This document shows, piece by piece, positions 11,038-55,303 of a DNA stretch of 56,330 nt (its first letter is position 1; the number at the start of each line of letters is the position of its first letter). The translations under genes were made by a program, and so were the position numbers. The notes below the pieces were generated by a model. It was not told the DNA's origin. It worked only from the letters and a program-made list of their open reading frames with translations, and did not search any database. The DNA is from Vulcanimicrobiota bacterium (GTDB lineage Bacteria; Vulcanimicrobiota; Xenobia; Xenobiales; JADMJV01), in contig JAFKGI010000012.1 of NCBI GenBank assembly GCA_017307785.1, forward strand, positions 128,001 to 184,330, read 5' to 3'.

Positions 11038-11107
11038 CCGGGCGCGTTCTCGCCGCCAAACTCTTCCCCCTGCAGGTTGTTGTTTCAGGACCAGGAAACC
11101 TTGGGCT

Positions 11108-11728
11108 ATGGCAGTGCAGGCGGTGCTCTTCGACATCGGCGGAGTCCTTATCCACGCCGACCTGGAATCGTACGCGGAACGCGGAGCCCGGGTCTTCAAG
11201 TCCAACCCGGAAGCCGTACGGGCCGCCGTGCAGCCGCGGGTCCCCAGACTGGAAAAAGGCGAAATCAGTTCCGAGGACTTCTGGAAAGAAGTCGGCGAGG
11301 TGCTCTGGTCCAAAGGCCAGGGAGTCCTCCCCGACCCCCATCATTTCCGGGGCCTCTGGAAACAGCTCATGGTCGACACCCTGAAGCTCGACAACCAGGT
11401 GCTCAAACTGTGCTGGAACCTGCGCGCCAAAGTCGTGGTCGGGGCCCTCAGCAACACCATCAAGGAACACGCCGAATACCTGGCCGACCTGGGCTATTAC
11501 CAGCCCTTCCGCCCGTGTGTTCTCTCCTGCCTGGTGGGCCAACGCAAACCGGACAAGTCGATTTACCAGTACGCCGCCAAGCAGGCCGGGAAATCCATCG
11601 GAAAATGCCTGTTCGTGGACGATTCCGCCGTCAACTGTCAGGCGGCCAAAGCGGCCGGCATGAAGGTGCACCACTTCACCGGCATCTACCCCCTGGTCAC
11701 CGAGCTGTCCAAATACAAGCTGCTATAG
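11108..11728 (+). CDS. HAD-superfamily hydrolase (subfamily IA)
   Basis: Motif I LFDIGGVL, motif II SNT, motif III K in QRKPD, motif IV FVDDS. Confidence 0.8.
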   Translation: MAVQAVLFDIGGVLIHADLESYAERGARVFKSNPEAVRAAVQPRVPRLEKGEISSEDFWKEVGEVLWSKGQGVLPDPHHFRGLWKQLMVDTLKLDNQVLKLCWNLRAKVVVGALSNTIKEHAEYLADLGYYQPFRPCVLSCLVGQRKPDKSIYQYAAKQAGKSIGKCLFVDDSAVNCQAAKAAGMKVHHFTGIYPLVTELSKYKLL

Positions 11729-15245: not shown

Positions 15246-15358
15246 TGACAACGCTCTTGCAACTCGACCAGAATACGCTGGAAAGCGAGCAGGAGACCCA
15301 GTCAGGGAACCGAACGCGGCACCCCATCTCGAGGTCCCGAGGCAAGGAGCGCAATGGA

Positions 15359-32351: not shown

Positions 32352-32645
32352 GTGGGGACCGTGTTGGCGATCTTCTTAACCCTGGTGGCCGTTTCCGCTC
32401 AGACTCTGGCCAATTACGCGCTACGAGACGAACGCTTCGTCCTGGGCGTGACCCTGCTGGCCTGTCATTTCGGGCTCTGGTGCCTGGCCCTGCGCCTGGC
32501 CCCCCTCACCGTGCTCATTCCCTGGACGGCCCTCAGTCACGTCCTCAATGCCTTGCTGGCCCGCGAACTGCTGCAAGAAAAAATCGGCCGGCGACGCTGG
32601 GCCGGCACCTTGCTCATCGCCTCGGGAATCGTGCTATGCAATTGA
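32352..32645 (+). CDS. EamA-like 4-TM small transporter subunit (ArnE-like)
   Basis: 97 aa, four hydrophobic helices. LQEKIGRRRWAGTLLIASGIVL parallels ArnE [23 protein letters not shown]. Confidence 0.55.
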   Translation: MGTVLAIFLTLVAVSAQTLANYALRDERFVLGVTLLACHFGLWCLALRLAPLTVLIPWTALSHVLNALLARELLQEKIGRRRWAGTLLIASGIVLCN

Positions 32646-32980
32646 GGACCGGACTGCTACTGGCCGCGCTGGCCATTTTTCTAAGCACCGAAGGCGACAT
32701 CCAGCTGGCTCTGGCCCTGCGCAAAATGGGCAGCTTCCACCTCTTCTACGCCCCCCTGTGGTTCGCCATCTTGCTGCTGGCCGCTCACTTCGCCGTCTGG
32801 CTGCAGGTGCTCAAGCGCCTGGAACTCTCGCTGGCCGTCCCCCTCACCGCCAGCTCCTACCTGCTCAACGCCCTGCTCGCCCCCGCCCAACTCTCCGAAA
32901 CCATGGGCGTCAAAAGCCTGGCCGGCTACGCCCTGGTCACCCTGGGGGTGGTGCTGGTCGTTTCCAGCGACGATCAATAA
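32636..32980 (+). CDS. EamA-like 4-TM small transporter subunit (ArnF-like)
   Basis: 114 aa paralogue that overlaps the upstream gene by 10 nt. Same topology. Confidence 0.55.
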   Translation: MQLRTGLLLAALAIFLSTEGDIQLALALRKMGSFHLFYAPLWFAILLLAAHFAVWLQVLKRLELSLAVPLTASSYLLNALLAPAQLSETMGVKSLAGYALVTLGVVLVVSSDDQ

Positions 32981-33309
32981 CTGCCGATCACCTCAATCAG
33001 CCCCACCAGGTGGTCGTTCATCTCGTCCAAATCCTCGGCCGGAATCCACCACTCGGTGTGCTGCTCTCCGCCCACGGTCTGCACCGCGTAGCGGTCCATG
33101 AATTCTCGCCGCACGAAAAACCGCGTCACATAACCCGCCCCATCGGCCGGCACATTCCATTTCACGGTAATCTCGCGCGCATACTCCTCATTGGTCACAG
33201 GATAGAAAAACGGCTGACCCAAAAGCCGCGGCGGCCAACGCCGAAAACCCGACTGCCGAACCAGCTCCAGCTCGGCCGGACCACAAGGACGAAAGCATTC
33301 CTGATGCAT
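32974..33309 (-). CDS. Hypothetical protein
   Basis: Start chosen at MHQECF to avoid overlap with the SNF2 start. The ORF extends to 33357. Confidence 0.35.
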   Translation of the reverse strand: MHQECFRPCGPAELELVRQSGFRRWPPRLLGQPFFYPVTNEEYAREITVKWNVPADGAGYVTRFFVRREFMDRYAVQTVGGEQHTEWWIPAEDLDEMNDHLVGLIEVIGSY

Positions 33310-33345
33310 AGAGGGCAGTATAGCACTCGCGTCGACATAAAGCCT

Positions 33346-39080: not shown

Positions 39081-39362
39081 CGCAAAGCCCGACTTCTTGA
39101 CTTCCGCGGCCTCTTCGGCAAAACGCATCGGCCCATATCCGGGGCCCGTCGACTCCGAGGAAGCGCGAAAGCCGTCCTGGGGAGCCGTTTCCTGGTTTCT
39201 TTCCGGGCGCTTGACGCCACTCGGAGCGGCCCCGATCAGGGAGGAATACTGCGTGGAAATCATGCAGATAGTTTCTGCTGAAGAAAAAAGACTCCTGCCC
39301 ACTAGACGGGCTAGACTTGTGGTGGGATACAGGTAGTTGGTGATTCTTCGCCTGGAGGTTTG

Positions 39363-40931
39363 ATGTACGCTCAGTACAACTTGGGGAACCCTTCGTTCTG
39401 CGCTCCCACGCCGTTCAGCCCTGGCTTTAATCAGGGCTACGGCAACTTTGGAATGACCCAGCAGATGCTCGGCAGCCCCTACGGCATGCCGCAAGGCTGG
39501 GGTGGCATGCAAAATCAGATGCAGCAAATGATGATGATGATGCAGACCATGATGATGTTCCAGCAGATGCAAATGCAGATGCAGGGCGGCGGAATGGGCC
39601 CGGGCAACTTCTACCCGCCCATGCCCCAGCCGTATGGCCCCATCCCTCCCAACCACGGTTTCCCCCCCTTCCCTCCCCAGCCGTACAACAACCAGCCTTA
39701 CAATAACCAGCCCTACAACAATCAGCCTTACAACAACAATCCTTACGGCAACGGCCCGCAGCCCTTCCCAGGGCCGCGCCCCCAGCCGTTTCCGGCGCCC
39801 GCTCCCCCTCCCTGGAACGGACCCAAGCCCACTCCCCAGCCAGCTCCCGCCCCCAAGCCGGTCCCCAAACCCGCGCCCAAGCCGCTCAATGCTCAGCAAT
39901 GGCGCACCAGCCTCAATGGCAACCCCGGCGCCCTCAAAGCCTACAACGCCATGACCCCGGAACAGCGCGCCACCGTGGATCGCCTGGGCATGAACCATCC
40001 CGCCGAAGCCGGCGGTGCCGATGCCAACTTCCTGAAGATCATGGGCAACGGTCGCCTCACCAATCGCGACCGCCAGGGCCAGACCACGCTGCAGCACCTG
40101 GATCAGCTGGATCGCCAGAAAGTCCCCAAAGAAGTCGACAAACCCACCGCCTATCGCGAACTGGTGGCCAACATCGCCGAACCCGGCAACACCAATCAAC
40201 GCGGTCGCGGCACCTGCGCCCCCACCTCGGTGGAGTACGTGCACGTCAAGAATCAGCCTTCCGACTACGCCCGCGTGGTCACCGGACTGCTCTCGGAAAA
40301 AGGCGAAGTCCGCATGAACAACGGCGAGACCATGAAGCGCAACGCCAGCGGCCTCGGCCCCGATAACAGCGGACGCACCTCGGTGGACCGCATCTATCAG
40401 TCCAGCATGATGGACTACGCCGACGGCGACAAAATGACGTACAACAACCAGACCGACCAGCACGTCGGCGCCGACGGCAAAAACTCGCACCAGGGCATGT
40501 ACCTGAACGAAGAAGCCAAGGCTCTCAACGCCGTCACCGGCGAACGCCAGACTTCGCGCGGCGTCGACCCCAACAACACCGGCTTCATGGGCATTCGCCG
40601 CTTCACCACCGATCGCGACCTGCGCCATGAACTCAGCGAAGGCCGCAATCCCATCGTCTGCATGACCTGGGACCAGAGCCCGGGAGCGCGCGACAAAGAC
40701 CACGCTCTCACCATCACCAAGATGGATGGCGACTATGTCTACCTGCGCAACCCCTGGGGCAACGACGAAAAGGGCGGAACGAACGGACCCCCGCGTGAAG
40801 TCGTCGATCCCAATACCGGACTGGTGCGCATGAAGAAAGACGACTTCTACGCCCGCCTCACCGGCATCAACCAGCGCGAAGACGACCGCAGCTTCGCCGG
40901 CCGCTGGTGGGACCGCATCACCGGCAGCTAG
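39363..40931 (+). CDS. Calpain-like cysteine peptidase with Q/N/M-rich prion-like N-terminal domain
   Basis: GGAGG 5 nt before the ATG. N-terminal QNQMQQMMMMMQTMMMFQQMQMQMQ and four QPYNN repeats plus a Pro-rich stretch. C-domain has RGRGTCAPTS (Cys), DHALTI (His) and YLRNPWGNDE (Asn box, cf. calpain RLRNPWG). Confidence 0.65.
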   Translation: MYAQYNLGNPSFCAPTPFSPGFNQGYGNFGMTQQMLGSPYGMPQGWGGMQNQMQQMMMMMQTMMMFQQMQMQMQGGGMGPGNFYPPMPQPYGPIPPNHGFPPFPPQPYNNQPYNNQPYNNQPYNNNPYGNGPQPFPGPRPQPFPAPAPPPWNGPKPTPQPAPAPKPVPKPAPKPLNAQQWRTSLNGNPGALKAYNAMTPEQRATVDRLGMNHPAEAGGADANFLKIMGNGRLTNRDRQGQTTLQHLDQLDRQKVPKEVDKPTAYRELVANIAEPGNTNQRGRGTCAPTSVEYVHVKNQPSDYARVVTGLLSEKGEVRMNNGETMKRNASGLGPDNSGRTSVDRIYQSSMMDYADGDKMTYNNQTDQHVGADGKNSHQGMYLNEEAKALNAVTGERQTSRGVDPNNTGFMGIRRFTTDRDLRHELSEGRNPIVCMTWDQSPGARDKDHALTITKMDGDYVYLRNPWGNDEKGGTNGPPREVVDPNTGLVRMKKDDFYARLTGINQREDDRSFAGRWWDRITGS

Positions 40932-41421: not shown

Positions 41422-42708
41422 TCAAGGAACGACCACGCCCACCTGATCCAGACCAGAAATGCCAAACCACAGGTTGCCGTCCGGCCCCGGATTGATGCCA
41501 TAAGGCCGCGACAAAGCGGTCAGTGCTGCAGAGGTAAACTCGCTCACCACACCGGTCTGCGTGATCCGCCCCAGCCGGCCTCCCTGGTACTCGGTAAACC
41601 AGAGGTTCCCGTCCGCTCCGGCACAGATGCCGACCGGCCTCGCCGCCGCGCTGATCCCCGAGGAGAACTCCGTAATCACACCGGCCGGGGTGATCCGCCC
41701 GATGCGATTCCCGCCGAACTCGGTGAACCACAGGTTGCCGTCCGGTCCCGCGCAAATCCCTTCGGGCGCGGACCCGGCCGTAATTCCAGTCGAGAACTCT
41801 GTCACCACCCCCGCGGTGGTGATACGTCCAATGCGATTCCCGCCGAAGTCGGTGAACCACAAATTACCATCCGGACCGCTGCAAATCTGGCTGGGGAGAG
41901 CTCCTCCGCTAATTCCCGCGGAAAACTCGGTGATGACGCCGGCAGGCGTGATGCGCCCGATGCGGCCGCTATTCTGCTCGGCGAACCAGAGATTTCCATC
42001 CGGTCCCGCACAAATTCCGTAAGGACCGCTTGCAGCCGTAAGTCCCGCCGAGAACTCGGTGACTACCCCGGCCGTCGTGATCCGTCCGATGCGGTTTCCG
42101 GCAATCTCGGTGAACCACAGATTCCCATCCGGTCCGGCGCAGATGACATAGGCCTGAGCGCCGCTGGTCAGGCCGGGAAATTCGGTGACAGCGCCACTAC
42201 TGGGATTCAACCGGCCAACCCGATCTCCGCCGTTCTCGATGAACCAGAGGTTGCCGTCGGGTCCCGCGCAAACGCCGGTTGGAGCAGCCCCTGCGGAAAT
42301 ACCGGTGCTCACGGCCTGAATGGTTCCGACGGGCGGAACCACCCGCAGGTTAGAGTTCGCACTCAGCCCACCGAAAGCCGCCGTAATTGTGGCCGACACC
42401 GCCGGAATCACCTGGGTCAGAGACTGGCCCGTGGCCAGGCCGCTGTTGGAAACCACACTGGCGGCCCCCGGATTGGAAGAAGTCCAGGTCGCCAGATTGG
42501 CCACGTTCGCACTCTGACCATCGCTGCTGGTAGCGGTCGCCACAAACTGCAGGGTCTCGCCCGAATGAATGCGGGCAGAAACGGGACTGACCGCCAAACC
42601 CGTCAGGGTCGGCAACGGGACGAAGCCCCGATCTCCACTCGTGCTACTGCCGCAGCCCAGTGCGAACAGCGCCAGACTTAAAATTGTCGTACGCAATGCA
42701 GAACTCAT
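41422..42708 (-). CDS. Vgb (streptogramin B lyase)-like 7-bladed beta-propeller lipoprotein with Big_2-like N-domain
   Basis: Lipobox LALFALGCGSS. The Big_2-like segment is LTGLAVSPVSARIHSGETLQFVATATSSDGQS. Seven repeats of ICAGPDGNLWFTE....IGRIT..G...EF. Confidence 0.75.
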   Translation of the reverse strand: MSSALRTTILSLALFALGCGSSTSGDRGFVPLPTLTGLAVSPVSARIHSGETLQFVATATSSDGQSANVANLATWTSSNPGAASVVSNSGLATGQSLTQVIPAVSATITAAFGGLSANSNLRVVPPVGTIQAVSTGISAGAAPTGVCAGPDGNLWFIENGGDRVGRLNPSSGAVTEFPGLTSGAQAYVICAGPDGNLWFTEIAGNRIGRITTAGVVTEFSAGLTAASGPYGICAGPDGNLWFAEQNSGRIGRITPAGVITEFSAGISGGALPSQICSGPDGNLWFTDFGGNRIGRITTAGVVTEFSTGITAGSAPEGICAGPDGNLWFTEFGGNRIGRITPAGVITEFSSGISAAARPVGICAGADGNLWFTEYQGGRLGRITQTGVVSEFTSAALTALSRPYGINPGPDGNLWFGISGLDQVGVVVP

Positions 42709-42874: not shown

Positions 42875-44146
42875 ATGAAATCAACCCTACGATCCGGCCT
42901 GCTGACCCTGGCCTTGCTGACCCTCGGATGCGGTGGCAGCACCTCGGACAACCTGGGTGTGCAAACCCCGACCCTCGCCTCCCTGACCGTAACCCCCGCG
43001 TCGGCCCGCCTCCTTTCCGGACAGACCCTGCAATTCACGGCCACCGCCACCGCCAGCGACGGACGCAGCGGCGACGTCACCTCCCTATCCACCTGGGCCT
43101 CCTCCAACAACTCGGCCGTCACCATCGTCGGCAACACCGGCCTGGCCACCGCCCAATCCATCACCCAGGTCGTGCCCGCCCTCACCGCCACCATCACGGC
43201 CGCCTTCCAGAACCTCAACGCCAGCACCAGCCTCAGACTGATCCCGGCCACGGGCACCATCCAGCGTCTCACCACCGGCCTCACCGCCGCCGCCGGCCCC
43301 ACCTGCATCTGCACGGGCCCCGACGGCAATCTCTGGTTCACCGAAAACGGCACCAGCAGCATCGGCCGAATCAACCCGACCACCGGAGAGATCACGGAAT
43401 TTTCCGGCCTGAGCGGAGTCCGCCGGCCCAACTTCATCTGCGCCGGACCGGACGGCAACCTCTGGTTCACCATCGGCAGCATCGACCGCATTGGCCGCAT
43501 CACCCCCGCCGGCGTGATCACCGAATTCTCCACCGGCATCTCCGCCAAGTCCTACCCCTACGGCATCTGTGCCGGTCCCGACGGCAACCTCTGGTTCACC
43601 GAAATCGACACCAACCTCATCGGCCGCATTACCCCGGCCGGAGTGGTCACCGAATTTCCCGTCCCCACGGCCGGCGTCGAACCGTTCCAGATTTGCAGCG
43701 GCCCGGACGGCAACCTGTGGTTCACCGAGCATGTCGGAAATCGCATCGCCAAAATCACCACCGCCGGCGTGGTCACGGAATTCTCCGGCCTCACCGCCAA
43801 CAGTGGCCCCGACGGAATCTGCGCCGGCCCCGACGGCAACCTCTGGTTCACCGAAAGAGACCGCGACGCCATCGGCCAGATCACCACCGCCGGCGTCATC
43901 AGCGAATTTAGCGCCGGCATCACCGCCGGCGCCTTGCCCCACACCATCACCCCCGGACCCGACGGTAATTTCTGGTTTGTCGAACTGGCCGGCCGCATCG
44001 GACGCATCACCCCCGGCAGCGATGTCACCGAATTCACCGGCCCCCTCACCAACAACTCGATTCCCTTCGCCATCACCCCCGGACCCGACGGCAATCTCTG
44101 GTTCACCGAACTGGTCGGAAATTCGGTCGACGTCCTCGTCCCCTAA
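42875..44146 (+). CDS. Vgb-like beta-propeller lipoprotein (paralogue, divergently transcribed)
   Basis: AAGGAG 5 nt before the ATG. LALLTLGCGGS lipobox, Big_2-like segment, and the same GPDGNLWFTE/IGRIT repeat seven times. Confidence 0.75.
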   Translation: MKSTLRSGLLTLALLTLGCGGSTSDNLGVQTPTLASLTVTPASARLLSGQTLQFTATATASDGRSGDVTSLSTWASSNNSAVTIVGNTGLATAQSITQVVPALTATITAAFQNLNASTSLRLIPATGTIQRLTTGLTAAAGPTCICTGPDGNLWFTENGTSSIGRINPTTGEITEFSGLSGVRRPNFICAGPDGNLWFTIGSIDRIGRITPAGVITEFSTGISAKSYPYGICAGPDGNLWFTEIDTNLIGRITPAGVVTEFPVPTAGVEPFQICSGPDGNLWFTEHVGNRIAKITTAGVVTEFSGLTANSGPDGICAGPDGNLWFTERDRDAIGQITTAGVISEFSAGITAGALPHTITPGPDGNFWFVELAGRIGRITPGSDVTEFTGPLTNNSIPFAITPGPDGNLWFTELVGNSVDVLVP

Positions 44147-44249
44147 AATACAGCAGCGCAACCGCTCACCGGTAACAAGGGAACCGCTGAGCGGTTGCCC
44201 GCCCCACACCCCCAGGGGAGCCCCAACCCCCCGCCGAATCCGCATTCCC

Positions 44250-46739
44250 ATGCTGCTCGTGCAAACCGCCGACGACCTCCTCTACGTCCCCGACCGGGAC
44301 ATCGCCAGCATCATGCCCACCTACCCCGACCGCTGGCGCATCGTCCTGCAAGACGGCCGCGTCGGCCACCGCACCGGCCCCGCCCCCCAAGGTCCCTGGG
44401 TCCCCCTGCAAAACGGCTGGGTCCGCCCCGAGCATCTGAAGAAAGAAGACAACCACTGGGTTGACCCGGCCGGCTTCCGCTACCCCTACCAACCCCTCGA
44501 CATCCCCGAAGAAGAAGAACCAGCCAGTGACCTCCCGCCCGGCCTGCTCACCGTCGAAAGACGCGATAAAACCTGGTTCTGGTGCACCGACAGCGGAGAA
44601 CTCCCCTGCGAAGGCCCTCCCCAACCCCACCCGGACCTGGCCCAACTCACCCCCCATCAGCTGGTCTACCTTCCGCGCGTGCGCCGCCTGTACACCACTC
44701 CCCCGGGTCCGTGCGCCGCCCTCGAACTGGACAACGGCCGGCAACTCAAAGTCCTGGGCGGCCTCTACTTCCGCCTGGCCAACCGGCTGGGCCTGGAAAG
44801 CTTCGTCTCCCTCGACCTCAGCGTCCCCGAGACCATGTGGAAACTGCGCGACTTCCCCTACGACCTTACCAGTGCCGACCCCGACAAAATCCTAAAAGAC
44901 CTCCCCACAGAACTGGCCTTCCTACAAAACCTGCTCTGGCAAGTGGCCACCCAGAACCGAACCAATGACTACGACAAAGCCGGCTTCGCCCAGCATCCCA
45001 TGCTCAGCTCGGCCCGCCGCTGCGGCTACCATCCCACCAAAGGGCGCATCTACATGCTCCTCCATCAATTGACCGTGGAACAAGAACTCTTCACCCTGCG
45101 CCAGCTCGGCTTCCGCGAAATCAGTCCCGAGCGTCGCCTCACCGGCAGCCGCCACCCCAACGTCGTGCTGCTCGCCCCCCACCCCGAACTCCAGGCAGCC
45201 CGCAAAGCCGCCCGGGAACACGGCATCAGCCTGCTCATCACCGGCAACTCCGGGGCCATCACCCAAGAATACCTGGCCGCCGAACTCAGCGGACCCATCC
45301 AAATTCTCCGCTACAACGTCCCCGACAACGAAATCAAAACCCTGCGCAAACGCTTCGCCCAACTCGGCTTGCCCAGCGGCCCGCCGATCCTGGTCCAAAA
45401 CCTGCAAAACATCCCGTCCCACCAACCGACCGCGCTCACTCCCCAACCCTTCAGCCGCATCCCCCTCCAGGACTTCACCGGCCTCTACTACGCCGACCCC
45501 CAGGAAATCGCCGCCTGGACCCCCACTCGCCCCGAAGGCTACCGGGTCGACCTCCACAACGGCCGCATCCTCCACCACCCCGGCCCCCCGCCACCCATCC
45601 CGCCACAAAGCCCGGTCGACCCCCGCCTCCAGCTCAAGAAACACCAATGGCACCTCGATGACGGCACCCAACAGAAAACAGGGCTCGACTTCCTGGACGC
45701 CGCCGCCCAACATCCCAGCCTGGCCGGCCGCACCAAAGACCACCGCTTCAACTACAACCGCCTGCGCTCCAGCGACCCCCTGCATCTGCACCTGGACGAC
45801 GGCACCGCCCTGCCCGTTCCCCAGCGCCTGTGGCGCCATAAACTACAAACCATCCTGGGCATCGACAACCTGGCCGAACTCTCCCCCGACCCCCATTGCC
45901 GCCGCTACCTCCAACTACGCGATCTACCCTACGAAATCGTGCGCGCCAAAGCAGACAAACTTCAAGCCGACTTCCCCGACTGGACCCAGCTCATCGCCAA
46001 CATCGTCTGGCAAGTCTATTGCGAACGCTACCAATACGCAGATACCTTCCAGGGCTTCTTCTACCGCCCCCTGCAGGCCGTGCTCTACCGCGCCGGCTAC
46101 CTCACCCGCGCCCAACTCAGAAGCCCCAGCGCGGCCAAAGACAGATTCTACGCTCGCTACTGCACCCTGCTCACCCGCATGGTCCGCCACTACCGCCTCT
46201 TCCACTATCACCAGATCGGCTTCGTCGACCCCTTTCCGGCCAGCCGCATCCTGGGCGACCGCCATCCCCAGCGCATCCTGCTGGTGGAAAAAGGCGACTT
46301 GCTGGAAGAACACGCTCTGCAACTCCAAAAAGAATTCGGCCTCACCGCCCTCATCCTCAAAGGCTGCCCCTCGCTGCTGGCCACCGAATACTTCTGCAAA
46401 GCCCTGCGCGAAATCTATCAAGGCCCTGTGGAAGTCTACTACTACGGCGACTTTGACGATGCCGGCTGGGATATCGGACCCGCCTTTGTCAAGCAGTTGC
46501 TCTTCTACGGCATCCAGTGCGTCCGAATGGAACGACTGGTTCTCCCACAGATCTTCACCCCCGAAGAGCAAATGCTCTACTCCCGCCCCCTGGATGCCCA
46601 AGCCCCCCACCTGATCACCCGCCAGCAACGCTTCCTCCAAGAAAGCGGCGGCGTCCAGGGCCAGCTGCGCGGCATCCACGGCAACTGGCTGCAGCCCTAC
46701 AGCCGCCTGCGCACCCGCCTCGAGGAACTCATGCCATGA
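44250..46739 (+). CDS. Gene A: tandem-duplicated protein, N-module with degenerate TOPRIM and C-module with intact Spo11/TopoVI-A/JetD-like TOPRIM
   Basis: 829 aa. Two homologous modules of about 415 aa (LRDFPYDL...LLWQV and LRDLPYEI...IVWQV). Module 2 has RILLVEKGDLLEE, then YYYGDFDDAGWDI about 55 aa later, then ESGGVQGQLRGIHGNWLQP. Module 1 has VVLLAPHPELQAA and ILRYNVPDNEI at the same places. Confidence 0.6.
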   Translation: MLLVQTADDLLYVPDRDIASIMPTYPDRWRIVLQDGRVGHRTGPAPQGPWVPLQNGWVRPEHLKKEDNHWVDPAGFRYPYQPLDIPEEEEPASDLPPGLLTVERRDKTWFWCTDSGELPCEGPPQPHPDLAQLTPHQLVYLPRVRRLYTTPPGPCAALELDNGRQLKVLGGLYFRLANRLGLESFVSLDLSVPETMWKLRDFPYDLTSADPDKILKDLPTELAFLQNLLWQVATQNRTNDYDKAGFAQHPMLSSARRCGYHPTKGRIYMLLHQLTVEQELFTLRQLGFREISPERRLTGSRHPNVVLLAPHPELQAARKAAREHGISLLITGNSGAITQEYLAAELSGPIQILRYNVPDNEIKTLRKRFAQLGLPSGPPILVQNLQNIPSHQPTALTPQPFSRIPLQDFTGLYYADPQEIAAWTPTRPEGYRVDLHNGRILHHPGPPPPIPPQSPVDPRLQLKKHQWHLDDGTQQKTGLDFLDAAAQHPSLAGRTKDHRFNYNRLRSSDPLHLHLDDGTALPVPQRLWRHKLQTILGIDNLAELSPDPHCRRYLQLRDLPYEIVRAKADKLQADFPDWTQLIANIVWQVYCERYQYADTFQGFFYRPLQAVLYRAGYLTRAQLRSPSAAKDRFYARYCTLLTRMVRHYRLFHYHQIGFVDPFPASRILGDRHPQRILLVEKGDLLEEHALQLQKEFGLTALILKGCPSLLATEYFCKALREIYQGPVEVYYYGDFDDAGWDIGPAFVKQLLFYGIQCVRMERLVLPQIFTPEEQMLYSRPLDAQAPHLITRQQRFLQESGGVQGQLRGIHGNWLQPYSRLRTRLEELMP

Positions 46740-48022
46740 TCCAAATCCAGGACGAAAACGGCCTCAGCCTCTGGCCCGAGCAACTCATCGTTTCCATCAC
46801 CCCCGCCTACCCCAACCGCCTGTGCGTCACCTGCGCGGACGGAACCGTCGGCTACATGCCCCACCCCATCCCCCCGGACTGGCCCAGCTCCACAGAATAC
46901 CAGCCCGAGCCTCACTGGGGCCTGCTACGCACTCCCGACGCCCTGCTCTGGGACGGCAGCCAGCTCTGCCTGCAAAGCCTGGAGGAAGCCACTCAGAATC
47001 TCTTCCAGGCCGGCCGCCACCTCTGGCTCCATCCCCGCCGCATACGCCGCGTCAGCAAACAAAGCGGCGGCCTGCTGCTTCTCACCGATGAAGGCACCGA
47101 ACTCGTCATCACCCCCCACTGGAGCCAGCAAGTGCTGAAGGCCCTGCACATCCCTTACCTCCCCGACGCCCCCAGCGGACCCTTTCTGCGCGACTATCCC
47201 TTCGAACTCGCCCGCGCCTCGGCGGCCGTCCTGCGCCAACACTTCGCCGACCCCAACACCCTCATCGCCAACCTCATCTGGCAACAACTCGTCTACCACC
47301 AGAGCGGCATCCACAAGGGCTACGGCACCAGCCCCCGAGGCTTCTGGTACGTCCCCGGGGCGGCCACCCTGGCCCGCCTCGGCAGCATCAGCGCCCATCA
47401 AGCGGAAATGATCTACTACCGCCTGCTCGTCAAACTCATCGACGACGATCGCCTCTTCGGCTACCGCGACCTTGGCTTCGCGGACCCCGGCGCCGACAGT
47501 CGAGAAATCGGCACCCACCACCCCGGCATCCTTCTGGTCATCGAAAAAACCGACCTGGCCAAAACTGGTGTCGCCGCCGCCCGCCACTTCGGCCTCAGCT
47601 GGCACATCACCGGCGGAATCTCCCGCCTGTTCACCGCCGAATTCTGCGCCTACGCCCTCCAACAAGCCGGCCAACAAAGCCTGCGCACCCTCATCTTCGG
47701 CGACTACGACCCCGGCGGCCGCGTCAACGGCCGAGCCATCGTGGCCCACCTCGACCGCTTCGGCACCCCCACCCCCGCCGGCCCCGAATTCCTCATCGAC
47801 GCCTCCGCCTTCACCGAAGAAGAACTCGAACTCTTCTCCCATCCCCTCAGCCAGGACGACGAACGCGTCCAAAAATGGCTCCAAGAAACCGGCGGAATCC
47901 ACGGCCAACCCAACGGCATCCACGCCGACTGGCTTCAGCCCCCCGAACGCCTCCTCCCCCTGATCGAGGCCAAACTTAGCCTGGCAGCTCCGGCGGCGCC
48001 ACCAGCCGACTCCGCACCTTGA
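46736..48022 (+). CDS. Gene B: single-module paralogue of gene A with intact TOPRIM-like motifs
   Basis: 428 aa. ATGA overlap with gene A. GILLVIEKTDL ... LIFGDYDPGGRVNGRAI ... ETGGIHGQPNGIHADWLQP. The N-region aligns to both A modules (SITPAYPNRLCVTCADGTVGY vs SIMPTYPDRWRIVLQDGRVGH). Confidence 0.6.
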   Translation: MIQIQDENGLSLWPEQLIVSITPAYPNRLCVTCADGTVGYMPHPIPPDWPSSTEYQPEPHWGLLRTPDALLWDGSQLCLQSLEEATQNLFQAGRHLWLHPRRIRRVSKQSGGLLLLTDEGTELVITPHWSQQVLKALHIPYLPDAPSGPFLRDYPFELARASAAVLRQHFADPNTLIANLIWQQLVYHQSGIHKGYGTSPRGFWYVPGAATLARLGSISAHQAEMIYYRLLVKLIDDDRLFGYRDLGFADPGADSREIGTHHPGILLVIEKTDLAKTGVAAARHFGLSWHITGGISRLFTAEFCAYALQQAGQQSLRTLIFGDYDPGGRVNGRAIVAHLDRFGTPTPAGPEFLIDASAFTEEELELFSHPLSQDDERVQKWLQETGGIHGQPNGIHADWLQPPERLLPLIEAKLSLAAPAAPPADSAP

Positions 48023-49541
48023 CCTCCACCTCACTGCGCCGCGTCGCCCAGGCCGGAAACGGAAACGTCACCACCAGCGGCAACGGCACTTCCGGCTGAG
48101 CCACAATCATCGTCCCCGGCGCCAACAACGTCGCCCGCCGCCGCAAACTCTCGCCCAACCAGGCATACTGCTCGCGCGCCGCCTCCGCCGATTCCAAGCG
48201 GCCCACCACGCGCAGCGCCGAATTCCCCACCACCCGCTCCTCCACTTGAGAAGCCGTCTGCTCCGCCCCTACCAGCACCACTCCCAGACTACGCCCGCGT
48301 TCGGCCACATCCAACAACATCTGACGAATGGCATCGCCTCCATCGCGAGGCGCATACTTATTCAACTCGTCCACCATCAAATAGGTGGTGGGAAACCCGT
48401 CCGGCATCGACTCCCGCGCCAGAAACACCGTCTGCAGAACCGCCCCCAGCACAAAGGCCCTGGCCCGATCCGAAAGCCGATGCACATCCACCACATTCAT
48501 CTGCCCCTCAAACGGATCAAACCGCCCCTCGGCCCCGACCAATCCCGCAATCTGCGGACCCAACGCCTTCAAACGCCGCGCCAACGCCCGCCGAGTCGGC
48601 GTGGTCACATTCTCATACCACTTGCTATCGGCCTTGCCAGACTCCGCAATCAAAAACTGCACCAGCCCCGCCATATCGCTCACCGACTGCCCACCCAGCA
48701 ACAAACCAGAACCCTCGGAAACGGACGCAGCCTCACGCAAACACTCCAGCAACCGCTCCACTCCGAATTCCATCACCCCGGTCTGTTCCGTATCCGCCAG
48801 CAAATAGCGCAAAAACTCCCGTTCGGCAAACTCGCGCAACGTCCACAACGGCCGGCTCACCCCATGAAAAACAACCTCAGAAAACGGCTCGCATGGCAAC
48901 TCCAACTGCTCATAAACCGCCCGCTGCTCCGCGCTCAAGCGGGCATTCGGACGATCCAAATACAACAAATCATCGCCCTTCACATTGAACAAAATGGCCC
49001 GCGAATTTCGCCCCGCCTCGCTCTGAAACAAGCTGTAGAGCAAAAACAAAGCATAACTCGTCTTGGTGGCCACCCCGGAAATCCCGGCAATGTTCACGTG
49101 AGCCCCCTTCACCCCGGAAAGAAAGTCCACATTCGCATAGGCCGCCATCCCATTTCTCATCACCCCAACCGGAATACGCCGAGTCATCGAATCAAAGCGC
49201 ATCGCCCAATTCACATTTGCCACCGAACAACGCTTTACCGACATCCCTGGCAAGGGCGGCAAATAAACCTCCGGATACGTCCGAATCACTCTCACCAAAG
49301 CCCGATAATGCTTGCCCACCCCGATGGCATCCACCACCCCGAAATGCCCCACCCAGCCCACATTCTCTACCTTCCGCCAGGTCTCCACCACCGCCCCCAG
49401 CTCCAGCTCCTGCGGCGAACGCACCTCCACCGTAAACTCCAGCGGCGACGCCACCGGCCGCGCGGAAACAACCATCGGAAACCCTGCATCATCACTCATC
49501 CCCGCCCATTCGCCCCGCCCCCTCAGACCTCCCGCGCCCAA
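47976..49541 (-). CDS. Gene C: HerA/DUF87-like P-loop ATPase
   Basis: N-terminal barrel-like region, P-loop variant HVNIAGISGVATKTSYAL, Walker B TTYLMVDELNKYAP (cf. HerA hhhDEAHxxxP). 47-nt convergent overlap with gene B. Alternative starts at 49499 or 49475. Confidence 0.55.
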   Translation of the reverse strand: MGAGGLRGRGEWAGMSDDAGFPMVVSARPVASPLEFTVEVRSPQELELGAVVETWRKVENVGWVGHFGVVDAIGVGKHYRALVRVIRTYPEVYLPPLPGMSVKRCSVANVNWAMRFDSMTRRIPVGVMRNGMAAYANVDFLSGVKGAHVNIAGISGVATKTSYALFLLYSLFQSEAGRNSRAILFNVKGDDLLYLDRPNARLSAEQRAVYEQLELPCEPFSEVVFHGVSRPLWTLREFAEREFLRYLLADTEQTGVMEFGVERLLECLREAASVSEGSGLLLGGQSVSDMAGLVQFLIAESGKADSKWYENVTTPTRRALARRLKALGPQIAGLVGAEGRFDPFEGQMNVVDVHRLSDRARAFVLGAVLQTVFLARESMPDGFPTTYLMVDELNKYAPRDGGDAIRQMLLDVAERGRSLGVVLVGAEQTASQVEERVVGNSALRVVGRLESAEAAREQYAWLGESLRRRATLLAPGTMIVAQPEVPLPLVVTFPFPAWATRRSEVEVKVRSRLVAPPELPG

Positions 49542-49582: not shown

Positions 49583-52500
49583 ATGGCGGGTGGAGCAAAT
49601 TTCGGATTCCTGGAACAACACGATCCCCAGCTCATGCACCTGGCCCAGCGCGCCGAACGCTACCTGGCCGACGACCCCAACACCTGCCTCATCAAATTGC
49701 GCCAATTCGGCGAATTGCTCATCAAGCACGTAGCCGCCCAGCACCGCCTTCAGGAAGCCGAGAACTTCGCCGCCACCATCCATCTGCTCCAACGCGAAGG
49801 CGTCCACGCCAGCGTCATTCAGGGCTTCCACGACCTGCGCCGGGCCGGCAATGACGCCGTCCACGGCTTCCGCGGCGACCACCAAGAAGCACTGCTCAAA
49901 CTCAAAACCGCCCGCGCCATGGGCACCTGGTATCACCGCGTCACCAAAGACCGCAGCTTCGAACCCGGCCCCTTCGTCCCGCCCCCCAGCGACGACGAAC
50001 AACTCCAGCAACTCCAGGACCAGCTCCAACAAGCCCTGCTGGAAAAACAACGCGCCCAGAACGTCGCCGAAACCGAAGCCCAGGCCCGCGCCCAGGCCGA
50101 ACTCAAAGCCTTGCAGGCGGCCGAAGAAGCCGCCAGCTGGAAAAGCCTGGCCGAAGAAACCACCTCACCAACCCCTGTGGCCACCGTCCCCCTCGAGGAG
50201 CTCAAAACCGCCACCGCCCAACAACCCCTCGACGAAGACGAAGCCGACACGCGCATCAAAATCGACGCCCAACTGCGCGCCGCCGGCTGGCAGGTGGACA
50301 GCGTCGAGCTCCGCTACGCCAAAGGCGCCCGCCCCCAGCAAGGCAAAAGCCTGGCCATCGCCGAGTATCCCACCCCCAAAGGACCAGCCGACTACGTCCT
50401 CTTCCTGGGCCTCACCCCGGTCGCCATCGTCGAGGCCAAGCGCAAAACCAAAGACGTCTCGGCCAGCCTGGAACAAGCTCGCCGCTATGCCAAAGCCCTG
50501 CCCGACCCCATCCCCTTCCTCTTTGCCACCAACGGCCGCCCCTACCTCAGACAGCTGATCGAGAAAAGCGGCGTCTGGTTCCGCGACGAACGCCGTCCCC
50601 AAAACCGCGCCCACGCCCTCAAAGACTGGTACACCCCCAAAGGCCTGGAAGCTCTACTCGCCCAGGACCTCGACCAGGCCCACCAAAAGCTCGAAAAAGA
50701 GCCTTTCGCCTACCTGCAACTACGCGACTACCAGATCCAGGCCATCCAATCGGTGGAAGCCGCCATCGCCGAAGGCAAACAGGACATCCTGCTGGCCATG
50801 GCCACCGGCACCGGCAAAACCCGCACCGCCATCGGCCTCATCTACCGCCTGCTCAAAAGCAAACGCTTCCGCCGCATCCTCTTCCTGGTCGACCGAACCG
50901 CCCTGGGCAACCAGAGCTTCAACGCCTTCGAGCACTTCCGCCTGGAACAAAACCAGACATTCACCGAGACCTACGACGTCAAGTCCCTGGGCGACGTCAC
51001 CCCCGACGAAACCACCAAAGTCCACATCGCCACCATCCAGGCCACCATCCAACGAGCCCTGGAAAGCGACGAGGCCAACGCCCCCGTCGACCAGTACGAC
51101 TGCATCCTGGTCGACGAATGCCATCGTGGCTACAGCCTGGATCGCGAACTCACCGACAACGAGCTCACCTACAAAAACGAGCAAGACTACATCTCCCAAT
51201 ACCGCCGCGCCCTCGACCACTTCGACGCTGTGCGCATCGGCCTCACCGCCACTCCCGCCCTGCACACCACCGAAATCTTCGGCCCGCCCATCTTCCTCTA
51301 CAGCTACCGCCAGGCCGTCATCGACGGCTACCTGGTCGACCACGAACCCCCCCTGCAAATCGTCACCAAACTTGCTCAAGATGGCATGGTCTGGCCCGCC
51401 CAGTCAGAGATGCTCCTCTACAACACCCAAACCCAAATGCCAGAAACCACCTGGCTACCCGACGAAGTCAAAATCGACCTGGAAAAGTTCAACAAGACCG
51501 TCCTCACCGAGAACTTCAATCAGGCCGTCTGCCAGGAACTGGCCCGCCACATTGACCCCACCCTGCCCGGCAAAACCCTGGTCTTCTGCGCCACCGACCT
51601 GCACGCCGACATGGTCGTACGCCTGCTCAAAGAAGCCTTCGAAGACGCTCCCGAACAGGCGGTCGTCAAAATCACCGGCGCCTCCGACAAACCCAACGAA
51701 CTCATCCGCCGCTTCAAAAACGAACAATACCCCAGCGTGGCCGTCACCGTCGACCTGCTCACCACCGGCGTCGACGTCCCGCAGATCTGCCACATCGTCT
51801 TCCTGCGCCGCGTCAAAAGCCGCATTCTCTACCAACAAATGATCGGCCGCGCCACCCGCCTGTGCAAAGACTTCCTCAAAGAAAGCTTCCACATCTACGA
51901 CGCCGTCGAACTCTACAAAGACATGGACGAGTTCTCCGACATGAAGCCGGTGGTGGTCAACCCCAAAACCACCGTCGAGCAGCTGGTGCGCGAACTCACC
52001 ACCGCCCCCGAAGAGGCCCGCCACGAAGTCTTAGACCAGCTGCTCGCCAAACTCCAGCGCAAAAAACGCAGCCTCCAGGGCAACACCTTCCAAGAACTCG
52101 CCGGCCAGACCTTAGCCGACCTCATCGAGCAACTGCGCGGCCAGACCCCCGAACAAGTCGCCACCTACTTCGGCGAACGCTTCGCCCTGGTCAGCTACCT
52201 CGACACCCACAAACCCAACCCCGCCCTCTATGTCGTCTCCACCCACGAAGACGAAGTCGCCTACACCGCCCAAGGCTTCGGCCCCGGCAACCAGCCCCCG
52301 GCCGACTACTTAGAAGGCTTCGCCCACTTCATCCAACAAAACCTCAACGAAGTCGCCGCCCTCACCCTGGTCACCCAACGCCCCAGAGACCTCACCCGCG
52401 AAGACCTCCGCCAATTACGCCTCCTCCTGGATAACGCCGGCTTCTCCGAAACCCAACTCAAAGCCGCCTACCGCAGAACCACCAACCAGGACATCGCCGC

Positions 52501-52801
52501 CAGCATCATCGGATTCATCCGCCAAAAAGCCCTCGGCTCCCCCCTCATCCCCTACGAAGAACGCGTCGACAAAGCCCTCAAAAAGGTCCTCTCCACCCGC
52601 CCCTGGACCGACCCCCAACGCAAATGGCTCGACCGCATCGCCAAACAGCTCAAAAAAGAAGTCATCGTCGACCACCACGCCCTCGATCAAGGCGAATTCG
52701 CCGCCCACGGCGGCTTCCAAACCATCAACAAAAAACTCGACGGCCAGCTCGCCAACCTCCTGGCCCAGTTCCAAGACGCCATCTGGGACGACGTCGCCTG
52801 A
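49583..52801 (+). CDS. hsdR: Type I restriction enzyme R subunit with DUF4145-like N-terminal domain
   Basis: EADTRIKIDAQLRAAGW (HsdR N-motif), LLAMATGTGKTRTAI (Walker A), ILVDECHRG (DECH), helicase C-domain QMIGRATR. About 200 aa N-terminal extension: FGFLEQHDPQLMHLAQRAERYL... Confidence 0.9.
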   Translation: MAGGANFGFLEQHDPQLMHLAQRAERYLADDPNTCLIKLRQFGELLIKHVAAQHRLQEAENFAATIHLLQREGVHASVIQGFHDLRRAGNDAVHGFRGDHQEALLKLKTARAMGTWYHRVTKDRSFEPGPFVPPPSDDEQLQQLQDQLQQALLEKQRAQNVAETEAQARAQAELKALQAAEEAASWKSLAEETTSPTPVATVPLEELKTATAQQPLDEDEADTRIKIDAQLRAAGWQVDSVELRYAKGARPQQGKSLAIAEYPTPKGPADYVLFLGLTPVAIVEAKRKTKDVSASLEQARRYAKALPDPIPFLFATNGRPYLRQLIEKSGVWFRDERRPQNRAHALKDWYTPKGLEALLAQDLDQAHQKLEKEPFAYLQLRDYQIQAIQSVEAAIAEGKQDILLAMATGTGKTRTAIGLIYRLLKSKRFRRILFLVDRTALGNQSFNAFEHFRLEQNQTFTETYDVKSLGDVTPDETTKVHIATIQATIQRALESDEANAPVDQYDCILVDECHRGYSLDRELTDNELTYKNEQDYISQYRRALDHFDAVRIGLTATPALHTTEIFGPPIFLYSYRQAVIDGYLVDHEPPLQIVTKLAQDGMVWPAQSEMLLYNTQTQMPETTWLPDEVKIDLEKFNKTVLTENFNQAVCQELARHIDPTLPGKTLVFCATDLHADMVVRLLKEAFEDAPEQAVVKITGASDKPNELIRRFKNEQYPSVAVTVDLLTTGVDVPQICHIVFLRRVKSRILYQQMIGRATRLCKDFLKESFHIYDAVELYKDMDEFSDMKPVVVNPKTTVEQLVRELTTAPEEARHEVLDQLLAKLQRKKRSLQGNTFQELAGQTLADLIEQLRGQTPEQVATYFGERFALVSYLDTHKPNPALYVVSTHEDEVAYTAQGFGPGNQPPADYLEGFAHFIQQNLNEVAALTLVTQRPRDLTREDLRQLRLLLDNAGFSETQLKAAYRRTTNQDIAASIIGFIRQKALGSPLIPYEERVDKALKKVLSTRPWTDPQRKWLDRIAKQLKKEVIVDHHALDQGEFAAHGGFQTINKKLDGQLANLLAQFQDAIWDDVA

Positions 52802-53258: not shown

Positions 53259-53583
53259 GTTGTATCGCTTCCGCCAGAGAACGAAAGGCCTTTTTGTCGT
53301 CTGAACTCAGGTCGTCGCATTCATCCTTACTGTAGAGCGTGAGGAGATAGATTCTTTTAGCCGCAACAATCGGCAGATAGACGATGCGCAAACCGCTGCG
53401 CTTACCTTTGCCCCTGGCGCTCTCCGCCCATCGAATCTTGCGTATGCCACCACACCCCGGGATAACGACTCCAACCTCCGGATTCCTGACCAGCTCCTCC
53501 TGAAACCTGGCAAACTCGTCATCTCGCGACATCAGCTTGAGAAGCTTCTGCGTAAAGATGCGAGTTTCTACAAAAAGATACAC
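53215..53583 (-). CDS. HigB-like (RelE/ParE superfamily) toxin
   Basis: GKGKRSGLRIVYLPIVAAKRIYLLTLYSKDECDDLSSDDKKAF matches the GKsGGyRvIY...IYLLxIYxKxExxDLs killer-protein motif. The toxin-first gene order is HigBA-like. Confidence 0.65.
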   Translation of the reverse strand: MYLFVETRIFTQKLLKLMSRDDEFARFQEELVRNPEVGVVIPGCGGIRKIRWAESARGKGKRSGLRIVYLPIVAAKRIYLLTLYSKDECDDLSSDDKKAFRSLAEAIQLEVKRRSGHDEKTL

Positions 53584-53896
53584 CCCGAACTATACGACAA
53601 AGTCGCACAGATTGCCTACCGTCCCTGTAATATCCGGACTGCCCGGATCGTCTAAGAAAATGAGAAAACTACAAACGGAGGCGATCGTGAGACCACGCGT
53701 TGGACTAAATAGAGCGATAGCAAACACTTCCCCAGAGGAAGCTGAGCAGAGATTGGCGGCCAGGGGCCTCGATCTCGAACAATACCGCGCCGAGTCCCGC
53801 TCTCACGCCCGTACGAGGGCCGGCGGATTTGCTGGCGCGTCTTGCTGTGCAGCCTCCCCTTGCAGGACTAAGCCCGCCAACGCGAATCCCCGCCCT

Positions 53897-55303
53897 ATGT
53901 CACTCGTCGCCCCAACCCAAGACATCGTCGCCAAACTCTGGAACCTCTGTCACGTCCTGCGCGACGACGGCATCACCTACCACGAATACGTCACCGAGCT
54001 CACCTACCTGCTCTTCCTCAAAATGGCCCAGGAGACCAAAAAAGAAGACCAGTTGCCGCCCCACTACCGCTGGGCCGACCTCGCCTCCAAAGACGGCATC
54101 GAACAGCTCGACTTCTACCGCGCCATGCTCCTCCACCTCGGCACCGACTCCGAGTCCCCCCGCGTGCGCGCCATCTTTGCCAACGCCAACAGCGCCCTGC
54201 GCGCCCCCAAAAACCTCAAAACCCTCACCGACAGCATCAACAGCCTCGACTGGTACAGCGCCCGCAGCGAAGGCCTCGGCGACCTCTACGAAGGCCTGCT
54301 CGAGAAGAACGCCAACGAAACCAAATCCGGCGCCGGCCAATACTTCACCCCAAGACCCCTCATCGACACCATCGTCCACCTCATGGATCCCCAACCCGGC
54401 GAACTCATCCAGGACCCCGCCTCCGGCACCGGCGGCTTCCTCATTGCCGCCAACCGCCACATCCGCGAAAAAACCGACGACCTCTTCGAACTCAAAGAAG
54501 ACCAACAATACTTCCAGCGCAACCGCGCCATCTACGGCATGGAACTCGTCCCCGACGTCCAACGCCTCGCCCTCATGAACCTCATGCTCCACGACCTCGA
54601 CTCCGACATCACCCTCGGAGACGCCCTCAGCCCCGACGGAGCCAACCTCCCCAAAGCCGACCTCATCCTCACCAACCCACCCTTCGGCTCCAAAAAAGGC
54701 GGCGGCCTCCCCACCCGCGACGATTTTACCTATCCCACCTCCAACAAACAATTAGCCTTCCTCCAGCACATCTACCGAGGACTAAAACCCGGAGGCCGCG
54801 CCGCCGTCGTCCTCCCCGACAACGTCCTCTTCGAAGGCAACGTCGGCGCCAAAATCCGCGCCGACCTCATGGAAAAAACCAACCTCCACACCATCCTCCG
54901 ACTCCCCACCGGCATCTTCTACGCCCAAGGAGTCAAAACCAACGTCCTCTTCTTCACCCAAGGAACCCCCACCACCACCACCTGGATCTACGACCTCCGA
55001 ACCAACATCCCCCAATTCGGCAAACGCACCCCCCTCACCCGAGGCCACTTCGCCGACTTTGAAACCGCCTACCACAACCGCACCGATCAAGGAGAAACCG
55101 GCCGCCTCCGCCCCTACACCCGCGACCAGATCCGCGACCGCGGCGAAAACCTCGACATCACCTGGCTCCGCGACGAAAACGCCGACCACGCCGACGACCT
55201 CGGCGAACCCGCCGAGATTGCCGCCGAGATCATGTCGAATCTCCGGACCGCAATGGAAGAAATGGAAGCGCTGATGGAAGCTCTTGAGGGTGGCAAAAGT
55301 TAA
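53897..55303 (+). CDS. hsdM: Type I restriction-modification N6-adenine DNA methyltransferase subunit
   Basis: N-terminus IVAKLWNLCHVLRDDGITYHEYVTELTYLLFLKM parallels EcoKI HsdM. FTPRPLIDTIV (motif I region), LILTNPPFG (NPPF, motif IV). The upstream extension in the ORF track is rejected. Confidence 0.9.
   Translation: MSLVAPTQDIVAKLWNLCHVLRDDGITYHEYVTELTYLLFLKMAQETKKEDQLPPHYRWADLASKDGIEQLDFYRAMLLHLGTDSESPRVRAIFANANSALRAPKNLKTLTDSINSLDWYSARSEGLGDLYEGLLEKNANETKSGAGQYFTPRPLIDTIVHLMDPQPGELIQDPASGTGGFLIAANRHIREKTDDLFELKEDQQYFQRNRAIYGMELVPDVQRLALMNLMLHDLDSDITLGDALSPDGANLPKADLILTNPPFGSKKGGGLPTRDDFTYPTSNKQLAFLQHIYRGLKPGGRAAVVLPDNVLFEGNVGAKIRADLMEKTNLHTILRLPTGIFYAQGVKTNVLFFTQGTPTTTTWIYDLRTNIPQFGKRTPLTRGHFADFETAYHNRTDQGETGRLRPYTRDQIRDRGENLDITWLRDENADHADDLGEPAEIAAEIMSNLRTAMEEMEALMEALEGGKS

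Follow-up and report, generated by a model that had tools for sequence, protein, structure and literature searches.

The stretch of DNA analysed here (56,330 nt, hereafter the window; contig JAFKGI010000012.1 of the Vulcanimicrobiota bacterium assembly GCA_017307785.1, positions 128,001 to 184,330 of the forward strand) contains two adjacent genes on its forward strand, called A and B in the following, which encode proteins of 829 and 428 amino acids (aa) respectively (Table 1). The two reading frames overlap, the ATG of B sharing its letters with the TGA of A as ATGA, with the B start at position 46736; the start of A was set by alignment, as ten homologues all open with M(L/V)xVQTA. A first-pass annotation of the window had proposed that A is built of two homologous modules, each equivalent to the whole of B. 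Comparison of A[1–415] with A[416–829] by BLASTP gave a match with E=2e-19 (28% identity over 257 aa) and a second match in the N-terminal strands, and a profile hidden Markov model (HMM) made from homologues of B only matched A twice, at residues 1–353 (1.9e-52) and 406–828 (2.4e-91), which bears out the two-module organization. The equivalence to B held for module 2, which matched B over its full length (E=2e-46, 33% identity), but only in part for module 1 (E=4e-15), which is about 90 C-terminal residues short. Gene A is thus an internal duplication, the first copy of which is catalytically dead. The linker between the modules is the least conserved part of A (mean pairwise identity 34%) and was mostly coil in the AlphaFold2 (AF2) model. 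A recent duplication at the DNA level was considered and rejected: the two modules share only short patches of 64–82% identity, and module 1, module 2 and B belong to old clades (see below).

Each module has the same order of domains, a LytTR-like domain followed by a 5Y-CAP-like winged helix and a TOPRIM domain. The AF2 models were confident, with predicted local distance difference test (pLDDT) and predicted template modelling (pTM) scores of 91.9 and 0.81 for B and of 90.9 and 0.71 for A. When a profile of 94 relatives was searched against the PDB sequences, it matched the LytTR domain 3d6w (E=7e-5) and the Top6A subunit of S. shibatae 2zbk (E=0.0096). These matches needed the 94-sequence profile, shallower profiles giving only sub-threshold LytTR matches in the PDB. 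HMMER placed the family pattern LvvEK...vDfDpgGW on VVEKD...TDADPYGW of Top6A and, in a weak and sub-threshold stretch, shRgfwY on TIRDLYY. A winged helix (5Y-CAP) followed by TOPRIM is the order seen in the A subunit of type IIB topoisomerases and in Spo11, and the N-terminal domains combine a beta fold with profile similarity to LytTR. On the strength of these comparisons the N-terminal domains are assigned to the LytTR type and predicted to bind DNA. The PF04397 model itself gave faint matches on the relatives P0010 and P0050 only. No Pfam family reached threshold on A and B of the window, and Pfam and NCBIfam scans (E≤0.1–10) of A, B and 31 relatives returned no family, including TP6A_N and the Spo11/Top6A Toprim. 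The PHROGs scan of A and B gave nothing significant, B giving a weak match (E=0.01) to phrog_6247, a 303-residue phage 'DNA topoisomerase'. PADLOC detected only a JetD3 fragment of 25 residues at the DxD loop (E=0.03), and a fold search of BFVD found no match beyond LytTR and no Top6A-like viral relative.

The residues expected of an active site are present in module 2 and in B. In module 2, Y605 lies in FQGFFYRP (aa 600–607; 46047–46070), where Gln replaces Arg at position −4, E680–K681 in ILLVEKGDL (aa 676–684; 46275–46301) and D734xD736 in GDFDDAG (aa 733–739; 46446–46466), both TOPRIM motifs being just as the first-pass annotation had read them. A C-terminal box, GIHGNWLQP (46671–46697), follows, and the AF2 model of module 2 shows a complete TOPRIM with its C-terminal subdomain. 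In B the corresponding residues are R201 and Y205 in PRGFWYVP (47333–47356), E270–K271 (47531–47554) and D323xD325 (47696–47719), with the C-terminal box GIHADWLQP (47915–47941). With a spacing of four residues, R201 and Y205 fall at the beginning of a predicted helix (200–215). Across the 94 relatives Y205, E270, K271 and D323 (B numbering) are invariant, and at least 90% of the relatives have R201, R214 and D325. The complete R-Y-E-K-D-D pattern was found in 113 of the 134 full single modules, and the Tyr, Glu, Lys and DxD of module 2 are kept in every aligned double-module protein, P0009 showing one apparent alignment shift. The partner that has lost the Arg at −4 differs among lineages: it is module 2 of A in the window, B in the locus L011, the second of the two genes in L006, and both members of the pair in L028. 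Module 2 of L011 and L015 retains this Arg, and the Tyr, Glu–Lys and DxD show no such variation. A rule for trans-complementation by which each pair keeps at least one such Arg was rejected, as both partners in L028 lack it.

The acidic triad (Glu and DxD), complete in B and in module 2, is absent from module 1. In the winged helix of module 1, GFAQHP stands in place of the R/Y motif, and the Arg equivalent to R214 of B is kept (SARRCGY). The Glu strand reads VVLLAPHPELQAA (aa 305–317), in which VVLLAPHP substitutes for LLVEKGD (45162–45200), and ILRYNVPDNEI (aa 352–362; 45303–45335) substitutes for the DxD loop. The first-pass annotation was therefore right that the VEK motif and the DxD site are lost, but not that both Asp residues have been replaced, since D359 pairs with the second Asp of DxD in the BLAST alignment; as D359 is conserved in none of the homologues, the site still counts as lost. 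In the AF2 model the TOPRIM of module 1 stops after three beta–alpha units (E302–310 to H359–371), and the fourth TOPRIM strand is missing together with the C-terminal residues that module 2 and B possess. The loss of Glu and DxD was common to all of the approximately 20 double-module relatives examined, and module 2 was live in each. The sequence 'LLAP' is kept in 9 of the 11 aligned homologues, the other two reading LLTP or LVTP. Among ten A proteins, module 1 had a mean pairwise identity of 47% and module 2 one of 54%. The LytTR-like region is better conserved in module 1 (51%) than in module 2 (44%), whereas the winged-helix and TOPRIM remnants of module 1 (42–44%) fall below the live counterparts in module 2 (58–60%), the most conserved part of A. 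Judged from these identities, module 1 is under constraint, strongly so in its LytTR-like region, and is not decaying.

A word-indexed search of 5.8 billion proteins revealed only ten other A-like proteins; nine of the A-like homologues are full-length double-module proteins of 844–890 aa, and P0001 and P0011 are shorter. The same search returned 38 B-like proteins, all named hypothetical protein and all from Candidatus Eremiobacteraeota. A protein of an Eremiobacteraeota metagenome-assembled genome (MAG), the source of the window, is 100% identical to B. An exhaustive profile search gave 683 cluster representatives at E≤1e-3 (217 at E≤1e-30), mostly single modules of 450–530 aa, with about a dozen double modules of 844–956 aa; the family is found mainly in Eremiobacterota metagenomes. 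In a neighbour-joining tree all copies of module 1, all copies of module 2 and all B proteins formed three separate clades, each monophyletic, indicating that fusion and inactivation happened once, long ago. The genome SCN 62-11 contains two A–B pairs that are 42–49% identical to the pair in the window. Neither the 50,697 phage records nor the 72,556 plasmid records searched by tblastn yielded a match. Descent from Mini-A or from the plasmid Topo VIII was considered and is unsupported, given these phage and plasmid results and the lack of a Top6A-like relative in BFVD. A literature search retrieved no paper joining LytTR with topoisomerase VI. Pfam, NCBIfam, PADLOC and the searchable literature contain no such combination of LytTR, 5Y-CAP and TOPRIM. 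We regard the proteins as a family of the Top6A/Spo11 superfamily that is new in itself and in its architecture, and that stands out by a fused third module inactivated long ago. In the locus L014 (9932–11596, +; Eremiobacterota, i.e. Vulcanimicrobiota), the A homologue P0011 (533 aa) ends soon after the start of module 2 and is followed only by fragments of B-like sequence, apparently a decayed copy of an A–B system.

The pairing of the two genes is obligatory. In at least eight independent contexts an A-like gene overlaps by 4–10 bp with a B-like gene downstream of it (the window, L001–3, L007/8, L009, L011, L015, L028 and the P0006 contig). Distant relatives occur as tandem pairs of single-module genes: in L016/17 both members have the RYEKDD set, in L006 the contig ends ahead of the DxD of the second gene, and in L018–20 and L023 adjacent single-module genes lie at contig starts. 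L010 and L012 are solitary. In L004 two single-module genes are 3 kb apart (P0046 at 10001–11470, the second copy at 14635–16092), separated by oppositely oriented AAA_16 and ParA-like genes; a Ser/Thr kinase gene comes before one copy, and a PD-(D/E)XK transposase-like gene comes after the other. At least four family loci, among them L004, L011 and L012, are in a single MAG. The locus scans covered six loci in genome contigs and ten in metagenome contigs, too few for neighbourhood statistics. Across about 12 contexts no third gene was conserved beside the pair, and neither the window nor about 12 contexts elsewhere had a GHKL/Bergerat ATPase (Top6B) gene beside it. No SMC-like, JetABC or MksBEF genes were found near the pair, and a repeat search found no terminal repeats flanking the pair in the window.

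The best explanation overall, to which we assign a probability of roughly 0.55, is that A and B together make up a self-contained, two-subunit Top6A/Spo11 relative that works without a topoisomerase B subunit, with module 2 and B as the catalytic pair. Each module would comprise a LytTR-type DNA-binding domain, a winged helix that (where intact) supplies a nucleophilic Tyr, and a TOPRIM domain that (where intact) binds metal. Module 2 would pair with B as two Top6A/Spo11 protomers do, the Tyr of one protomer being positioned over the Mg2+ site of the other to give two hybrid active sites, and DNA would be cut through a covalent 5'-phosphotyrosyl intermediate, which in principle could be resealed. 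Module 1, the ancient inactivated third copy, may provide extra DNA recognition, gate the closure of the catalytic pair on DNA, or both. This proposal follows the Top6A/Spo11 precedent, in which each strand is cut at a hybrid site, one protomer supplying the Tyr and the other the metal pocket beneath it (PMC11746154). In mouse SPO11, Y138F or E224A alone is inactive and the two mixed nick DNA (PMC11922745). By the same logic a cis dimer of modules 1 and 2 would have no complete hybrid site, because module 1 lacks both the Tyr and the metal site, whereas module 2 dimerized with B would form two such sites. We infer that the catalytic dimer most likely consists of module 2 and B, and that module 1 is a conserved non-catalytic arm for DNA binding or regulation, because the genes of unfused relatives are mostly paired paralogues, translationally coupled and both active, because the Tyr, Glu–Lys and DxD of module 2 are conserved, because A and B are translationally coupled and because module 1, module 2 and B form three separate old clades, in line with module 1 as an added third module. 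The Tyr, invariant in this family and absent from MksG/JetD, suggests at the sequence level a tyrosine transesterase of the Top6A/Spo11 kind. The earlier suggestion of an asymmetric assembly agrees with the dead copy and with a separate, active single-module partner that is always present, and we consider it likely that a pseudo-enzyme module forms part of an assembly of this kind.

To our knowledge, stand-alone Top6A/Spo11-like proteins are rare. The present family resembles Top6A and Spo11 in a putatively equivalent R-x-x-x-Y on one helix, in the Glu that ends TOPRIM strand 1, in the DxD about 53 residues later and in its paralogous or identical protomers, which would act as a dimer. The Glu-to-Asp spacing is 53–54 residues in the family and 52–55 in Top6A/Spo11 (residue numbers from PMC11746154); R131 and Y135 of Spo11 likewise share one helix of the winged helix (PMC11746154), and RxxY/FY is the signature of type IIB enzymes (PMC7671362). 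Unlike Top6A, the family has no Pfam TP6A_N or Toprim match and no Top6B/GHKL partner gene, and a LytTR domain takes the place of the Top6B-binding N-terminus. The distance from Tyr to Glu is also shorter (65–75 residues, compared with 94–98 in Top6A/Spo11), and a C-terminal GIHADWLxP box of its own, an Arg that is dispensable in some lineages and the fused dead third module set the family further apart. Mini-A, a phage-encoded, single-gene, stand-alone Top6A-like protein of ~300 aa with a WELDAL box (Takahashi et al. 2019, PMC7671362), is similar in combining 5Y-CAP and TOPRIM without a B subunit and in its RxxY/FY, E and DxDxxG motifs (PMC7671362). The modules described here differ from it in being larger (430–530 aa), in their LytTR domains and GIHADWLxP box, in being usually paired and in being encoded on bacterial chromosomes. 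JetD and MksG are dimeric bacterial DNA-cleaving enzymes that likewise have a Top6A-like TOPRIM with Glu and DxD; however, they have no catalytic Tyr in the 5Y-CAP-equivalent domain and operate with the SMC-like JetABC/MksBEF motor (PMC10123090), whereas in the present family the Tyr is invariant, SMC-like neighbours are lacking and the match to the JetD model spans 25 residues only. The best precedent for an obligate pair of Spo11-like paralogues is plant SPO11-1 and SPO11-2, which are described as diverged paralogues that must both be functional for break formation (PMC8430568). These are eukaryotic and meiotic, need TOPOVIBL and accessory factors, and have neither a fused pseudo-module nor LytTR. 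In LytTR response regulators (AgrA, ComE; PF04397) the LytTR domain is partnered by a receiver domain; here its partner is a DNA-cleaving core instead.

The first-pass annotation had asked whether A is a built-in pseudo-dimer, TopoVI-A, Spo11 and JetD all acting as dimers. In a JetD-like version of that reading modules 1 and 2 would form an intramolecular pair with one live TOPRIM site and hydrolytic chemistry of the JetD/MksG kind, acting as a nickase or asymmetric nuclease, and B would be separate or docked as an extra active monomer. Homologous fused modules often pack in this manner, the AF2 model of A alone (pTM 0.71) was confident, and the weak PADLOC JetD3 match falls at the DxD loop. 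Hybrid-site catalysis (PMC11922745) would nevertheless leave such a pair without one complete site, as module 1 can furnish neither half; module 1 is also without the fourth strand and the C-terminal subdomain of the TOPRIM half. Nor would a purely hydrolytic enzyme account for the invariant Tyr, usually accompanied by an Arg at −4 on the winged-helix helix, and the unfused relatives pair two active modules. With no JetABC or MksBEF genes in the vicinity, the JetD analogy is weak. We consider this arrangement unlikely, and both module 1 as the pseudo-dimer partner and a JetD-type chemistry are probably wrong. A different division of labour would make B an active homodimer and A a non-cleaving regulator, targeting subunit or inhibitor/antitoxin-like partner, the retained motifs of module 2 serving only to bind DNA or metal. 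It would suit the full R/Y/E/DxD set of B beside a module 2 that has lost its Arg in this clade, the solitary single-module relatives L010 and L012, which imply working homodimers, and the locus L014, where A is truncated and B reduced to a remnant. Yet deeply divergent clades all keep the Y, E, K and DxD in module 2 (the P0009 shift apart), its winged helix and TOPRIM are better conserved than any other part of A, some copies of module 2 keep the Arg (L011, L015), and in L011 it is B, not module 2, that lost it. Such a role for A seems to us distinctly improbable.

The least probable of the explanations weighed here, and a rather remote one, is that A–B is the breakage–reunion core of a strand-passage topoisomerase, a site-specific recombinase or a mobile-element enzyme, whose partner ATPase or ligase is encoded elsewhere, for example by the adjacent HerA-like ATPase gene. 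A HerA/FtsK-like ATPase gene is indeed convergent with B, in L011 same-strand genes for an ATP-dependent DNA ligase and a KaiC/RecA-like ATPase precede the pair, PD-(D/E)XK transposase-like genes occur near L004 and L016, and resealing of nicks is possible for SPO11 (PMC11922745). Against this, neither a GHKL/Bergerat ATPase nor any other partner recurs in the ~12 contexts, and the HerA-like gene, which lies on the complementary strand, occurs at none of the other loci; nor did the plasmid and phage collections give any matches. The mobile-element version was rejected: flanking terminal repeats are lacking, and one genome has two paralogous pairs that diverge by more than 50%, where near-identity would be expected of transposon copies.

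Several points weigh against the pairing of module 2 with B in a Spo11-like enzyme. The pairing is argued by analogy, and the pTM of 0.71 for the model of A alone implies inter-domain packing that could be a cis contact between modules 1 and 2. Yeast Spo11 cannot do without the Arg at −4, which module 2 lacks in this clade and both partners lack in L028, and the chemistry may differ from that of Spo11. The equation of Y205 with the Top6A Tyr is putative, being drawn from the sub-threshold HMMER stretch (i-E 6e2), the spacing and the position on the helix. Homodimers are possible, as the solitary L010 and L012 indicate. With regard to function, the neighbourhood is defence-like in only about half of the ~12 contexts, and PADLOC gave nothing beyond the JetD fragment.

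A function in conflict with foreign DNA fits best, and is weakly suggested by the patchy, multi-paralogue distribution and by neighbouring restriction–modification, BREX-like, toxin–antitoxin and nuclease genes. The pair in the window is flanked by the HerA-like ATPase and a type I restriction–modification system, and L001 by a gene for a DUF499 protein and a phosphodiesterase-like (BREX-like) gene; other flanks contain AAA_16 NTPases or MazE/PIN and PD-(D/E)XK genes (L016, L004), whereas those of L007, L010 and L015 are plain metabolic or pilin genes. How Spo11-type enzymes stay off DNA until needed is an active question. Weak dimerization is thought to be a safety catch of Spo11 (PMC11922745). 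More tentatively, and with the odds somewhat against it, the system might introduce ATPase-independent, LytTR-guided, protein-linked breaks at specific sequences, perhaps resealable, with the dead protomer as a built-in regulator or targeting arm. If so, prokaryotes would have an analogue of Spo11 that is targeted by sequence, and nature would have provided an experiment on how Spo11-type dimerization is controlled. The family offers a compact two-gene system of soluble-looking, confidently modelled proteins with a LytTR domain on every module and with natural variants of two active protomers or of two active and one dead, so that hybrid-site catalysis, heterodimer asymmetry and pseudo-enzyme control could become testable in vitro; were it a defence or programmed-break system, bacteria would be putting the Spo11 fold to a new function.

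Table 1. Features of the A–B locus and adjoining genes in the window
Feature	Position	Strand	Description	Basis or remark
Gene A	44250–46739	+	829 aa, two fused homologous modules	Open reading frame and translation
Gene B	46736–48022	+	428 aa, single fully equipped module	
Module 1, LytTR-like region	44250–44789	+	aa 1–180, N-terminal, beta-rich	
Module 1, degenerate winged helix	44817–45134	+	aa 190–295, 5Y-CAP-like	HMM alignments, site pattern 'AQR...'
Module 1, TOPRIM remnant	45135–45365	+	aa 296–372, truncated and dead	
Inter-module linker	45366–45458	+	aa 373–403	Least conserved part of A
Module 2	45459–46736	+	aa 404–829; LytTR-like, winged helix, TOPRIM, C-terminal box	
Inverted repeat	44158–44198	none	16 nt, 9-nt loop	94% complementary (repeat search)
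HerA/FtsK-like P-loop ATPase	47976–49541	−		PADLOC mad8 9e-11, HerA 7.6e-6; PHROG FtsK/SpoIIIE-like 2.7e-7
Type I restriction–modification system	49583–52801 and 53537–55303	+	EcoEI-like HsdR, HsdM	

The remaining features of the locus lie on both sides of the pair. The HerA-like ATPase gene has no Pfam match, is convergent with B (the 3' ends overlap by 47 nt) and stands alone on its strand between B and hsdR; its absence from all other A–B loci led us to reject it as a conserved partner of the system. HsdR has an extra N-terminal DUF4145 domain (residues 23–101), HsdM carries N6_Mtase and HsdM_N domains, and the gap between the two genes is ~730 nt. In L011 (3064–5984, +; from a MAG labelled Burkholderiales), the genes that directly precede the pair encode a KaiC/RecA-like ATPase of 345 aa and an ATP-dependent DNA ligase of 627 aa with an N-terminal extension of ~295 aa without known identity, all on the same strand; this one context is possibly a break-and-rejoin operon.

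Upstream of A, the inverted repeat sits in the 103-nt gap that separates A from an NHL-repeat gene, and is possibly the terminator of that gene or an operator. Immediately upstream are two divergent, paralogous genes for secreted beta-propeller proteins (41422–42708, −, and 42875–44146, +) with Vgb_lyase/NHL-type repeats ('GPDGNLWFTE') and a Big_2 domain. An SNF2-family helicase with DUF3670 (32548–35868, +; 1106 aa), encoded ~8 kb upstream of A–B, could belong to a further module of the DNA-transaction or defence type. Between these lies a gene (39360–40931, +) for a 523-aa protein with no Pfam match, the N-terminal half of which is of low complexity and rich in Q, M, P and N, with runs such as QMQQMMMMMQTMMMFQQMQMQMQ and NNQPYNNQPYNNQPY.

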